NCBI GenBank assembly: GCA_016198755.1
Contig: JACQIB010000003.1
Coordinates: forward strand, 1 to 64,000
Length of the DNA: 64,000 nt
Direction of reading: 5' to 3'
From: Candidatus Aenigmatarchaeota archaeon
GTDB lineage: Archaea > Aenigmatarchaeota > Aenigmatarchaeia > Aenigmatarchaeales > JACQIB01
This document shows, piece by piece, positions 24,934 to 39,856 of this stretch (position 1 is the stretch's first letter; each line of letters begins with the position of its first letter). The notes beneath the pieces are model-generated. The model saw only the letters and a program-made list of their open reading frames with translations, was not told the DNA's origin and searched no databases. Made by a program: the position numbers and the translations under genes.

Positions 24934-25058
24934 GCCCCCCTAGTTTTTGGGGAAAGCTCAGCATGGATGGAGCGCCTGACTTCTAACGAGCGTTAGAAGA
25001 TCTGACAACAGATGAAGAAATCAGGAGGTCGCGGGTTCAAATCCCGTGGGGGGCACCA
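24934..25058 (+). tRNA. tRNA-Arg(TCT) with two introns: 8/9 (24942-24954, 13 nt) and 37/38 (24986-25019, 34 nt)
   Basis: Acceptor GCCCCCC/GGGGGGC, D stem GCTC/GAGC with A20, anticodon stem CCTGA/TCAGG, TTCAAAT, CCA; helices CCCC/GGGG and CTTC/GAAG each followed by AA|A. Confidence 0.92.
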
Positions 25059-37747: not shown

Positions 37748-38284
37748 TCATGGCTTGAAGAACTTTACCGCATAATATCCAACAGAATCTTTGTAAACAA
37801 CAGCCCAGAGCATGTTTGCGCGGATATTATGGGCTAATCTGACAGCTCTGCTGAGTTCAGGGAAAGAGAAAACATAGTTTTCCGGAACAGCAAACACAAT
37901 CCATTTTGTGTGTTCCCCAGCACTTTTAGGCCCCCTTTTCAGTGGTTTCACACCTTTGTTGTAAACCCTGAAGTCACATCCAAACTTAAACCCTGTTCTG
38001 GTTGGTAGTTCTTTGTTTCTCAAATCTTTGTAAACAGCATAGCGGAAGCTGAAGCGCGGATCTTTTTGGTTGCAATACTGGAACATTTCCTCCTTTCCAA
38101 CCTCTTTTCCTGTCTTATCCACCATAGTTACCTTTCCAATATCCAGTAAATATGCAGCTTCTATTAACGCAAGTTCAAGCCTGTCTTCCCTGGGCTTTCC
38201 CAGATAAAGCTCTTCAAACAGCTCATTTCCCTTTTCCCTGTCCCATACAACAGCTCTATTTTCTGCTAAAACAACTTCTATCAT
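37748..38284 (-). CDS. endA: tRNA splicing endonuclease, catalytic (alpha) subunit
   Basis: IEAAYL, VYKDLR, TGFKFGCDFRVY, EH, C-terminal KP. Confidence 0.92.
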   Translation of the reverse strand: MIEVVLAENRAVVWDREKGNELFEELYLGKPREDRLELALIEAAYLLDIGKVTMVDKTGKEVGKEEMFQYCNQKDPRFSFRYAVYKDLRNKELPTRTGFKFGCDFRVYNKGVKPLKRGPKSAGEHTKWIVFAVPENYVFSFPELSRAVRLAHNIRANMLWAVVYKDSVGYYAVKFFKP

Positions 38285-38285
38285 T

Positions 38286-38807
38286 TTATCCCACCTTCGG
38301 AGATTCTATTATGTAGTAAGTACAGTCAGAGTCATTATCCACAACAGCCCAGAGTGCAACAGATTTTATATTTTGTGCAAGTTTTATTGCTTTCCCAAGC
38401 TGCTCTAAAGCACATGGATAATCTTCTGCTGAAGTAAAAACAATCCATTTCACTGTTTCAGCTTTCCCAGGTTTTGCACCACGTTCATAAACCCTGAAAT
38501 CACATCCCTTAAATCCTGTTCTCACTGCTAATCCACGTTCCCTCAGGTCTTTGTATACTGAATAACGGGCCATGAAATGCTCGTCCCTTTCAGAACAATA
38601 ATTCAGAATTTCTTTCAAAGAAAGTTTTTGCTCTCCTATAACTACCTCTAGCTTTCCCCTCTCCAAAAGAGCTGCTGCTTCTATCTGGTCCAGTTCAAAT
38701 CCACTTCCAAGCGGATTACCATACCAGCCTGTTTCGTATAGCTCCTTTGCTTCGGGGCCTTCAACAACAACTTTGTCATTTTCCAGCTTTCCCGTCAGCA
38801 TATTCAA
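38286..38807 (-). CDS. endA: tRNA splicing endonuclease, structural (beta) subunit
   Basis: Paralogue with VYKDLRERG, CDFRVY, no catalytic His, acidic loop DNDSD; likely ATG start at 38801. Confidence 0.88.
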   Translation of the reverse strand: MNMLTGKLENDKVVVEGPEAKELYETGWYGNPLGSGFELDQIEAAALLERGKLEVVIGEQKLSLKEILNYCSERDEHFMARYSVYKDLRERGLAVRTGFKGCDFRVYERGAKPGKAETVKWIVFTSAEDYPCALEQLGKAIKLAQNIKSVALWAVVDNDSDCTYYIIESPKVG

Positions 38808-38887: not shown

Positions 38888-39160
38888 ATGAAGATATTTG
38901 TTTTATTTACAGCCTTTTCCATTGCTCTGATCTTTACCTTGCCAACAGCTTTTGCTCTCAATTTTGAAAATAATGGGAAAATTATTCATAAAGAAATACT
39001 AAAAGCAAAGCTTTCCAAGTCTGTAAAACCAATTAAAACAATAGCCGAGCCAAAAATAATGGCAAAAAAGCTTCCGTATTTCTGTTCAGATGATTTTATA
39101 GCAGGATACCCAAAAGCTGAACTGTTAAGGAAACACTGTTCTATCTTGGCAAAGAAATAA
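38888..39160 (+). CDS. Hypothetical secreted basic protein
   Basis: Signal-peptide-like N-terminus from ATG 38888. Confidence 0.55.
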   Translation: MKIFVLFTAFSIALIFTLPTAFALNFENNGKIIHKEILKAKLSKSVKPIKTIAEPKIMAKKLPYFCSDDFIAGYPKAELLRKHCSILAKK

Positions 39161-39692
39161 CTTTGGAAGCTTTCACTTCACAGTCCCTGCACATTATTTT
39201 CTGCTTTTTATCCACGTCCCCAGCAGAAGGAGACGGGCTCATTACGCAGGTAGGTCTAAAGCAATGTTCCAATCCCAATTGATGGCCTAAAGTATGTACA
39301 GCTTCTTTTGTAACCCTTTCTCCAAGAAGGTAAAGGTTTATTCCCTGTCCATAGAATTCTGTTCTCAATCTTGCCATGGAAATAATGGAAACAGAATAAA
39401 CAGGATCTTCAACAGCAAATGCAAAGTTCATTTTGTCTGCATACAAGTCCGCATCTGTTATAAAAAGTGCAGGCAAATCTCTGTCTATATACTGTGCAAC
39501 TTGGTTCTTGCAAAGCAAATCAATCATTTTATCTGCATCATGCTGCCTTCTCAGAGCATTATAAGATTCCTTAGGAACAACAAGATTTTCCATAACTCTG
39601 GTTTTAATTCCCAGTGTATTTTCTATTCCCCCGGAAACTTCTTTCAAAAGCTTTTCTGAAACAGTCCCTACAGGTATTATCCTAACAAGCAT
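39141..39692 (-). CDS. Archaemetzincin-like protein (catalytic Glu replaced by Thr)
   Basis: ITDADLY, SMARL, KEAVHTLGHQLGLEHC..CVM..C..C; start moved to ATG 39692 to avoid the tRNA. Confidence 0.88.
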   Translation of the reverse strand: MLVRIIPVGTVSEKLLKEVSGGIENTLGIKTRVMENLVVPKESYNALRRQHDADKMIDLLCKNQVAQYIDRDLPALFITDADLYADKMNFAFAVEDPVYSVSIISMARLRTEFYGQGINLYLLGERVTKEAVHTLGHQLGLEHCFRPTCVMSPSPSAGDVDKKQKIMCRDCEVKASKVISLPR

Positions 39693-39727
39693 GGATAAAA
39701 TTAGTTTCGCAAGCTTAAAAGTTAGAG

Positions 39728-39856
39728 TGGTGGGGCAGGCGTGATTTGAACACGCGACATTCCGCACTGCACACAATAGGTATGCAGTTCCACGGTCTTC
39801 AGCCGTTTAAGCCTCTTTAATTAAGAGTGTGCTCTCCCGAGCTGAGCTACTGCCCC
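39728..39856 (-). tRNA. tRNA-Phe(GAA) with two introns: 27/28 (39807-39828, 22 nt) and 44/45 (39760-39789, 30 nt)
   Basis: Acceptor GGGGCAG/CTGCCCC, anticodon stem CACGG/CCGTG after splicing, loop CTGAAGA, CCA; helices GAGC/GCTT and CCGT/GCGG with AA|N bulges. Confidence 0.92.

Follow-up and report, generated by a model that had tools for sequence, protein, structure and literature searches.

Can a tRNA splicing endonuclease work without the lysine of its catalytic triad? The question is raised by two adjacent genes of the archaeal splicing endonuclease (EndA) family, located at 37748-38807 of a 64,000-nucleotide (nt) stretch of DNA (hereafter the window; contig JACQIB010000003.1 of assembly GCA_016198755.1, positions 1 to 64,000). 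In reviews and structural papers dating up to 2025, the catalytic triad is described as conserved in all four EndA types (PMC6379350), and mutation of the Lys in the conserved Tyr-His-Lys set as killing the enzyme (PMC6379350, PMC12397907). In the catalytic subunit encoded here, the Lys position is occupied by Ala. The host is a tiny uncultured archaeon, the named homologues of its catalytic subunit being labelled Candidatus Aenigmatarchaeota (a DPANN phylum), and its genome (G000) consists of 890,842 bp in 6 contigs, with ~40% G+C and a marker completeness of 89%. Quite probably, the two genes constitute an operon for an (alpha-beta)2 splicing endonuclease that descends from a Lys-less single-copy ancestor and is active without the canonical Lys, the activity being deduced from genome content.

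Two EndA genes and a vacant lysine site

The two genes, whose products are called B and A below, are positioned as follows.

38286-38807, minus strand: endA-B, structural (beta-like) subunit, 173 amino acids (aa) if started at the TTG (38807), 171 aa if started at the ATG (38801)
37748-38284, minus strand: endA-A, catalytic (alpha-like) subunit, 178 aa

The 171-aa form of B is the database protein P0271. The stop codon of B (TAA) is followed by one base and then by the start codon of A (ATG), which is in a different frame. With 44% identity between them (E 2e-42), A and B are EndA paralogues: PF02778 and PF01974 score 51.9 and 79.3 bits in A and 55.5 and 66.4 bits in B (cut-offs 21 and 27), and the TIGR00324 endA model gives 94.7 bits for A and 92.3 bits for B against a cut-off of 59.6. 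Profile searches of the source genome with PF01974 and PF02778 (E<=1) found no EndA gene beyond these two, and exactly two EndA matches were present in each of the five genomes sampled from the same family.

To locate the triad, A was aligned by phmmer to the solved EndAs of N. equitans, M. kandleri, M. jannaschii, ARMAN-2 and A. fulgidus. The motif R-x-A-[HQ]-x-x-R-K of all five matches RLAHNIRA of A free of gaps, so that the R-K of each solved chain pairs with R155-A156. Tyr115, His125 and Lys156 of M. jannaschii (chain 1a79 count, offset +8; triad numbering confirmed in PMC2761253) fall on Tyr108, His125 and Ala156 of A. Two residues of the triad are therefore kept while the third is replaced, by an Ala whose GCA codon would need two changes to encode Lys. 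Since only the triad Lys fails and every other defining feature of the family is present, the pair is filed as a variant member of archaeal EndA. The relevant codons and loops are listed below.

37961-37963, minus strand: codon of catalytic Tyr108 (Tyr in 121/121 aligned sequences)
37913-37960, minus strand: Tyr-His loop (L3/NEQ-type insertion), residues 109-124, with K110, K113, K116, R117 and K120
37910-37912, minus strand: codon of catalytic His125, in the motif E-H-T-K-W (His in 121/121)
37817-37819, minus strand: GCA codon of Ala156 at the canonical Lys site (Ala in 121/121)
37778-37795, minus strand: degenerate L10 loop of A (Y164-K-D-S-V-G169)
38325-38339, minus strand: acidic L10 loop of B (D157-N-D-S-D161)

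The Tyr-His loop of A, NKGVKPLKRGPKSAGE, separates the two catalytic residues by 16 positions, compared with 9 in M. jannaschii. Insertions corresponding to the crenarchaea-specific loop (CSL, L1) or the ARMAN-specific loop (ASL, L2) were not found in A, as its residues 6-109 align to residues 6-108 of M. jannaschii EndA, which lacks both. B retains Tyr107, but its His and Lys sites are taken by Thr118 and Ser149, respectively, and its loop is short, at 10 residues. In the B family, the Tyr and all three Asp of L10 are invariant (41 of 41 rows). The mean number of acidic residues in the L10 window is 1.65 for paired A (n=17), 3.18 for B (n=17) and 2.95 for unpaired Lys-less units (n=39). The features of the two-gene EndA class are thus found in the pair, with A devoid of a working L10 and B devoid of the triad but equipped with the acidic L10. 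Much of the original prediction, which was made from the sequence of the locus, is upheld by these comparisons: the adjacent paralogues (in their open reading frames (ORFs), domains and identity), the motifs FRVY, GEH and RLAHNIRA in A and DNDSD in B together with the long loop, the missing Lys of A, for which the alignment offers no Lys at the canonical site, and the complementary losses of acidic L10 in A and of His and long loop in B.

Structure models are consistent with a two-subunit enzyme. The AF2 model of A (predicted local distance difference test score (pLDDT) of 91.1) has the fold of the M. jannaschii alpha4 EndA (1A79), with a Foldseek template modelling (TM) score of 0.85 to 1a79_A and the same chain length, and splicing endonucleases occupy ranks 1-30 of its Foldseek matches throughout. 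The M. jannaschii enzyme differs from A in its Lys156, its 9-residue Tyr-His loop and its use of one gene for both jobs. For an A2B2 assembly, the model reached an ipSAE of 0.84, whereas none of three controls exceeded 0.00; this mark is attained by 58 of 80 solved complexes and by 2 of 110 mismatched pairs, although the score may only reflect likeness, because similar complexes have already been solved. At least 95% of contacts were common to the runs, and the partner pLDDT was at least 88. The predicted contacts are textbook ones: the C-terminal strands pair (A 169-178 with B 161-171), and the L10 residues 153-159 of B (171-aa numbering) touch residues 39-42 and 97 of A.

It is highly improbable that A is a catalytically dead pseudo-enzyme or that the pair is a single alpha'2 gene split by frameshift or mis-assembly. 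The absence of the canonical Lys from A speaks for a dead enzyme, but Tyr and His are invariant in its aligned homologues and the source genome has no other EndA. A split gene was suggested by NF006795, the model of the ~350-aa fused alpha'2 chain, as B and A, one base apart, match the N- and C-terminal halves of its 350 residues (E 2.5e-41 and 3.5e-41). However, each half scores 141 bits, far under the cut-off of 501, and the two ORFs are separated by a stop codon. The frameshift candidate was rejected after the B/A junctions had been compared across loci: the B-then-A layout is found in 17 genomes, with TGA, TAA or TAG as the stop, with varying frames, and with spacings of -4 to +31 nt at 15 of the 17 loci and of 465 and 927 nt at the other two. 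Such recurrence with differing stops, frames and spacings excludes a sequencing frameshift, and the genuine fused forms found elsewhere in the phylum look different. As judged from the sequences and models together, the pair represents two separate genes that would form a real, independent (alpha-beta)2-type system. The two widely spaced loci (L010 in G064 and L011 in G188; 927 and 465 nt) both belong to the window's family.

Extent of the lysine loss and descent of the pair

Sequence comparison indicates that the Lys loss is phylum-wide and older than the A/B pair. A search at E 1e-5 returned 1093 homologues of A, and in the best 120 of these, 56-95% identical to it, Tyr, His and Ala occupy the three sites without exception (120/120). 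In the phylum, 200 of 201 genomes have an EndA match, and the EndA loci of 59 genomes were read: 17 carry the B-then-A pair, 30 one Lys-less gene alone at the locus read, 2 a Lys-less gene made of two fused repeats, 5 a Lys-less gene plus a ~400-aa epsilon-like gene bearing the canonical Lys, and 5 an epsilon-like gene only. Lys is absent from all 56 catalytic units of the Lys-less clade, which come from 54 Aenigmatarchaeota genomes (Ala 47, Ser 7, Thr 2). Moreover, the site holds a small residue in each of the 17 B subunits (Ala 11, Thr 4, Ser 2). The single-copy Lys-less forms carry Tyr, His, the long loop (L3; see below) and an intact acidic L10 on a single chain and are thus alpha4-like. 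Apart from the Lys and the loop, they resemble the M. jannaschii type in having Tyr, His and acidic L10 on the same chain. Because both these single-copy forms and B are without Lys, the residue would have been lost before the duplication and not via a division of labour between the subunits; its loss had originally been attributed to subfunctionalisation, which the Ala, Ser or Thr of single-copy relatives and of B contradicts.

A quick IQ-TREE phylogeny was built from 122 units (75 locus units plus 47 selected representatives, the remaining two-repeat representatives being left out), with branches assessed by the SH-like approximate likelihood ratio test (SH-aLRT). In this tree, all 57 Lys-less L3 units group with 20 B rows in a single clade (SH-aLRT 95), within which the window's order makes up a clade of 47 rows (SH-aLRT 96) comprising 17 A, 20 B and 10 single-copy rows. 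Within the order, the A rows (17; SH-aLRT 95) and the B rows (20; SH-aLRT 99) each form a clade of their own. The Nanoarchaeota-like P0214 and other canonical enzymes fall outside the Aenigmatarchaeota Lys-less clade. The B/A pair is, on the strength of this tree, a lineage-specific duplication of a Lys-less single-copy ancestor, separate from other two-subunit EndAs, and the independent origin originally proposed for it is supported by the nesting of B inside both clades.

How the pair relates to known two-subunit enzymes can be seen by comparison with N. equitans NEQ205/NEQ261 (3IEY; PMC2761253), which likewise consists of two genes for an L3-bearing catalytic subunit and an acidic-L10 structural subunit. 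Unlike A, NEQ205 keeps the triad Lys133, and the position of the NEQ-like P0214 outside the Aenigmatarchaeota clade marks the window pair as a separate duplication. The (alpha-beta)2 EndAs of M. kandleri and the crenarchaea (5X89, 3P1Z, 2ZYZ) are also heterotetramers of catalytic and structural paralogues, but have the canonical triad; the crenarchaeal ones use the N-terminal CSL, while that of M. kandleri has no specific loop. The two-subunit architecture and the L3 loop are thus already known from other systems. What appears new, as far as sequence can tell, is the conserved Tyr-His-[Ala/Ser/Thr] site across the phylum, including genomes where it belongs to the sole EndA, and the separate origin of a two-subunit form from a Lys-less ancestor, by which the pair would add a third, independent origin of this architecture. 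A full-text literature search found no report of a Lys-less EndA, although the supplementary alignments of PMC5829648 and PMC3488258 might show the Ala in a sequence from Nanohaloarchaea.

Among the 59 genomes read, several carry other EndA forms. In five of them (G012, G118, G076, G035 and G003; L082-L091), the Lys-less alpha4-like gene is accompanied by a three-unit epsilon-like gene of ~400-455 aa, which has the full canonical triad (Tyr-His-Lys) as well as an ARMAN-type loop (YFPGASP...); in five others (G009, G021, G025, G030 and G094), the epsilon-like EndA stands alone. The ARMAN-2 epsilon2 enzyme (4FZ2, 9W2K) to which these genes are related in form is also from DPANN and also has a lengthened Tyr-His loop, and broad specificity is a property of the ARMAN-2 enzyme (PMC3488258 and PMC12397907). 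It differs from the window pair in being a three-unit single chain that keeps Lys282 and owes its specificity to K161 of the ASL, and ARMAN-2-like three-unit genes of ~400 aa are present in other Aenigmatarchaeota genomes but not in the source genome.

The fused two-repeat EndAs, L051 (G058), L052 (G147) and P0121, are ~360 aa long (open frames of 364-413 aa), with Tyr and His in both repeats and Ser at the Lys site, and their C-terminal repeat joins the Lys-less clade. They represent an alpha'2-like form within a DPANN phylum; the alpha'2 type is given as missing from DPANN in PMC5829648.

Beyond the genomes labelled Aenigmatarchaeota, P0125, labelled Nanohaloarchaea, is Lys-less with L3. The Iainarchaeum protein L067 (G201) has Tyr, His and, at the Lys site, Thr, with a 9-residue loop and an acidic L10 (motifs RLAHNIRT and HTKY), and is the sole significant PF01974 match in a 1.1-Mb Candidatus Iainarchaeum metagenome-assembled genome (one genome checked, its completeness not established). 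P0221 and P0238 resemble L067 in their Thr at the Lys site and their short loop.

Interrupted tRNA genes and evidence for activity

If the Lys-less enzyme is to be credited with activity, its substrates should be found in the same genomes. With default settings, ARAGORN detected 0 tRNAs in the window, and the Rfam gathering threshold passed one partial match. Since these scans came back nearly empty, ARAGORN with introns allowed, run on the whole genome, and the RF00005 model were used instead. The source genome then yielded 16 tRNA matches above the Rfam cut-off, 9 of the 14 full-length ones spanning 83-127 nt, and 18 tRNA genes by ARAGORN; none of the latter are tRNAs for Arg, Lys, His, Gln or Ser. 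So few tRNAs in an 89%-complete genome imply that many tRNA genes must be too interrupted for detection. Once a 13-nt insert near the D arm of the tRNA gene at 24934-25058 had been removed in silico, the gene was recognized as one for tRNA-Arg(UCU) whose 34-nt intron occupies the 37/38 anticodon-loop position that ARAGORN allows. For broad specificity of the pair (cleavage of introns away from 37/38 and of relaxed motifs), this gene, with its D-region insert in addition to the 37/38 intron, may be an indirect sign. The many interrupted tRNAs that had been proposed for this genome are hence corroborated by ARAGORN, RF00005 and the in silico removal of an insert.

Several features of these tRNA genes were observed in passing. 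The gene at 24934-25058 (plus strand) carries two inserts; left as it is, ARAGORN calls it Phe, and the Rfam match covers only model positions 9-63. A second gene, at 39728-39856 (minus strand), ~0.9 kb upstream of the EndA pair, carries an insert of 50 nt according to ARAGORN, which calls it Ile(UAU); its RF00005 match extends over 126 nt with 39.7 bits. The CCA end is encoded in the ten fully printed ARAGORN tRNA sequences of the source genome.

Five relatives have nearly closed genomes (1, 2, 3, 3 and 7 contigs). Each has one PF01974 match at E<=1, and this sole EndA lacks the Lys but carries both L3 and an acidic L10. Their tRNA matches often contain inserts: in the one-contig genome G115, 7 of the 8 tRNAs found at E<=1e-4 span 85-111 nt. 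Because a Lys-less protein is the only EndA in nearly closed genomes whose tRNAs bear introns, it must work there, and we infer from this gene content that the Lys-less EndA is active.

Six points weigh against the reading of the pair as an active, separately derived enzyme. First, an approximately unbiased (AU) test fails to reject a placement of B outside all Lys-less catalytic units (p 0.137, lnL difference 25.7); because of this, the timing of the duplication depends on the quick tree and on the pairs being seen only in the window's order. Second, the case for activity comes solely from sole-EndA status in intron-rich genomes. Third, the source genome is only 89% complete, so a third EndA could sit in the gap, although all five genomes sampled from its family likewise have exactly two matches. 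Fourth, a working Lys-less site is unexpected from known enzymology: according to PMC12397907, the ARMAN-2 enzyme loses its cleavage activity in the K282A mutant, and the scissile phosphate receives hydrogen bonds from both the Lys and the backbone of the residue that follows His. Fifth, as five genomes of the phylum also carry an epsilon-like EndA with the canonical Lys, the Lys-less copy in these genomes might carry only part of the load. Finally, the 178 Lys-less catalytic units on which the residue comparison below is based (Ala 169, Ser 7 and Thr 2 at the Lys site) overlap, as a database homologue and a genome locus may represent one and the same protein, and are related, so that their independence is overstated.

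The L3 loop and candidate substitutes for the lysine

The long Tyr-His loop had been regarded as a new specificity loop that supplies the missing Lys. Its novelty is not borne out by sequence comparison, in which it belongs to the published L3 class of DPANN enzymes, defined by a basic insertion between the catalytic Tyr and His. The best solved relative of A is the catalytic subunit of N. equitans (3iey_A, E 8.8e-29), whose NEQ205 loop G-V-I-P-K-K-G-K-R aligns with G-V-K-P-L-K-R-G-P-K of A. According to PMC3488258 (Hirata et al. 2012), the NEQ205 loop comprises residues 90-98 with K93, K94, K96 and R97, lies near the triad, contains the catalytic His and is expected to be important for broad specificity; in ARMAN-2, K241A and K244A were introduced into the loop, which was "not shown to be involved" in activity. 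In PMC5829648 (Kaneta et al. 2018), the loop is named L3, found in diverse DPANN lineages, alpha4-type enzymes included, and linked to disrupted tRNA genes. Furthermore, an L3 of the same K-[KR]-G-x-[KR] pattern occurs beside the canonical Lys in N. equitans, P0214, P0219 and P0248, and this coexistence indicates that the loop predates the Lys loss.

In the mechanism we propose, the EndA pair would cut bulge-helix-bulge introns from pre-tRNA and probably also from pre-rRNA. B would serve as scaffold, its C-terminal strand pairing with the corresponding strand of A and its acidic L10 plugging into a pocket of the opposite A, while A would bear the active site (Tyr108 and His125) and the L3 loop. 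The single-copy alpha4-like ancestor would already have had L3 and a small residue in place of the Lys, and would have been duplicated within the lineage. Stabilisation of the transition state would most likely have passed to one of the invariant basic residues close to the site, Lys120, Arg155 or Lys127.

Candidates were sought by setting 81 canonical units against the 178 Lys-less catalytic ones, residue by residue.

Lys120: Lys in 178/178 Lys-less units; 11% basic in the 81 canonical units, 31% in the 13 long-loop canonical ones
Arg155: Arg in 178/178 Lys-less units; in canonical units Arg 41, Lys 27, Asn 10 (84% basic)
Lys127: 99% basic in Lys-less units; 53% basic in canonical units
Thr126: Thr in 178/178 Lys-less units; Ser or Ala in canonical units
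Glu124: Glu in 177/178 Lys-less units; variable in canonical units, with no majority residue

Among the Lys-less units, G118 is also invariant (178/178), and a basic residue occupies the K116 and the R117 positions in 96% each. These conserved basic residues fit the idea of a loop lysine without singling out the loop.

That a lysine of L3, most likely Lys120, reaches the scissile phosphate and replaces the residue lost at position 156 is a tentative possibility. Lys120 is invariant in Lys-less units but mostly non-basic in canonical ones, its position is deleted in all 17 B subunits, and the long loop is present in every Lys-less unit of the main clade. The equivalent loops of the NEQ and ARMAN-2 enzymes are described as lying near the triad and containing the catalytic His (PMC3488258), and the loop of A has a fair model confidence (block pLDDT 82-90). 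Against a loop lysine, however, stand the coexistence of a same-pattern L3 with the canonical Lys in N. equitans, P0214, P0219 and P0248, the failure of the ARMAN-2 results (K241A, K244A; PMC3488258) to implicate the loop in activity, and the Iainarchaeum protein, the sole significant EndA match of its genome, whose Lys site is occupied by Thr and whose loop has the normal 9 residues. The same protein (one genome, completeness not established) weakens the notion that a long loop is a precondition for losing the Lys.

It is rather doubtful that a residue outside the loop compensates, with Arg155 (just before the lost Lys) or Lys127 (two after His) swinging onto the phosphate. Arg155 is Arg throughout the Lys-less units and variable in canonical ones, Lys127 is far more often basic in the former (99% versus 53%), and equivalents of both are present in the Lys-less Iainarchaeum protein (RLAHNIRT and HTKY), which has no L3. 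Both residues are, however, common in canonical enzymes too and thus not specific to Lys loss; moreover, P0192 has Asp at 127, and in P0221, a protein of uncertain role, positions 155 and 127 are His and Leu.

That nothing replaces the Lys seems unlikely. Tyr, His, the backbone or side chain of Thr126 and tight positioning of the RNA would then suffice, a slower enzyme being tolerable for a slow-growing symbiont. According to PMC12397907, the transition state is presumably stabilised jointly by the Lys and the backbone amide of the residue after His, which in Lys-less units is the invariant Thr (178/178), and the interchange of Ala, Ser and Thr at the Lys site is what would be expected for a side chain without a role. 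Yet ARMAN-2 K282A shows no detectable cleavage (PMC12397907), and dependence on splicing is heavy, most of the detectable tRNAs being interrupted.

Taken more broadly, it is quite conceivable, though short of probable, that the Aenigmatarchaeota, and apparently some genomes labelled Nanohaloarchaeota or Iainarchaeota, splice their tRNA and rRNA through a rewired active site in which the role of the Lys has moved to Lys120 or Arg155. If true, a catalytic role would have migrated naturally from one residue to another within an enzyme essential for RNA processing, and the rewired site may be tied to a very loose choice of substrates that let introns multiply. A phylum of Lys-less enzymes offers a natural experiment both on the role of the Lys and on what L3 contributes in DPANN archaea.

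The surroundings of the pair are unremarkable and comprise a gene for a CBS-domain protein downstream and, upstream, genes for an M54 archaemetzincin and a cytidylate-kinase-like protein. The M54 peptidase ORF (39141-39776, minus strand) is overlapped at its TTG-started N-terminus by the tRNA gene at 39728-39856, and its true start is probably further in. The archaemetzincin-like protein reads H-T-L-G-H, and the family motif is presumably H-E-x-x-H; its catalytic Glu may have been replaced.

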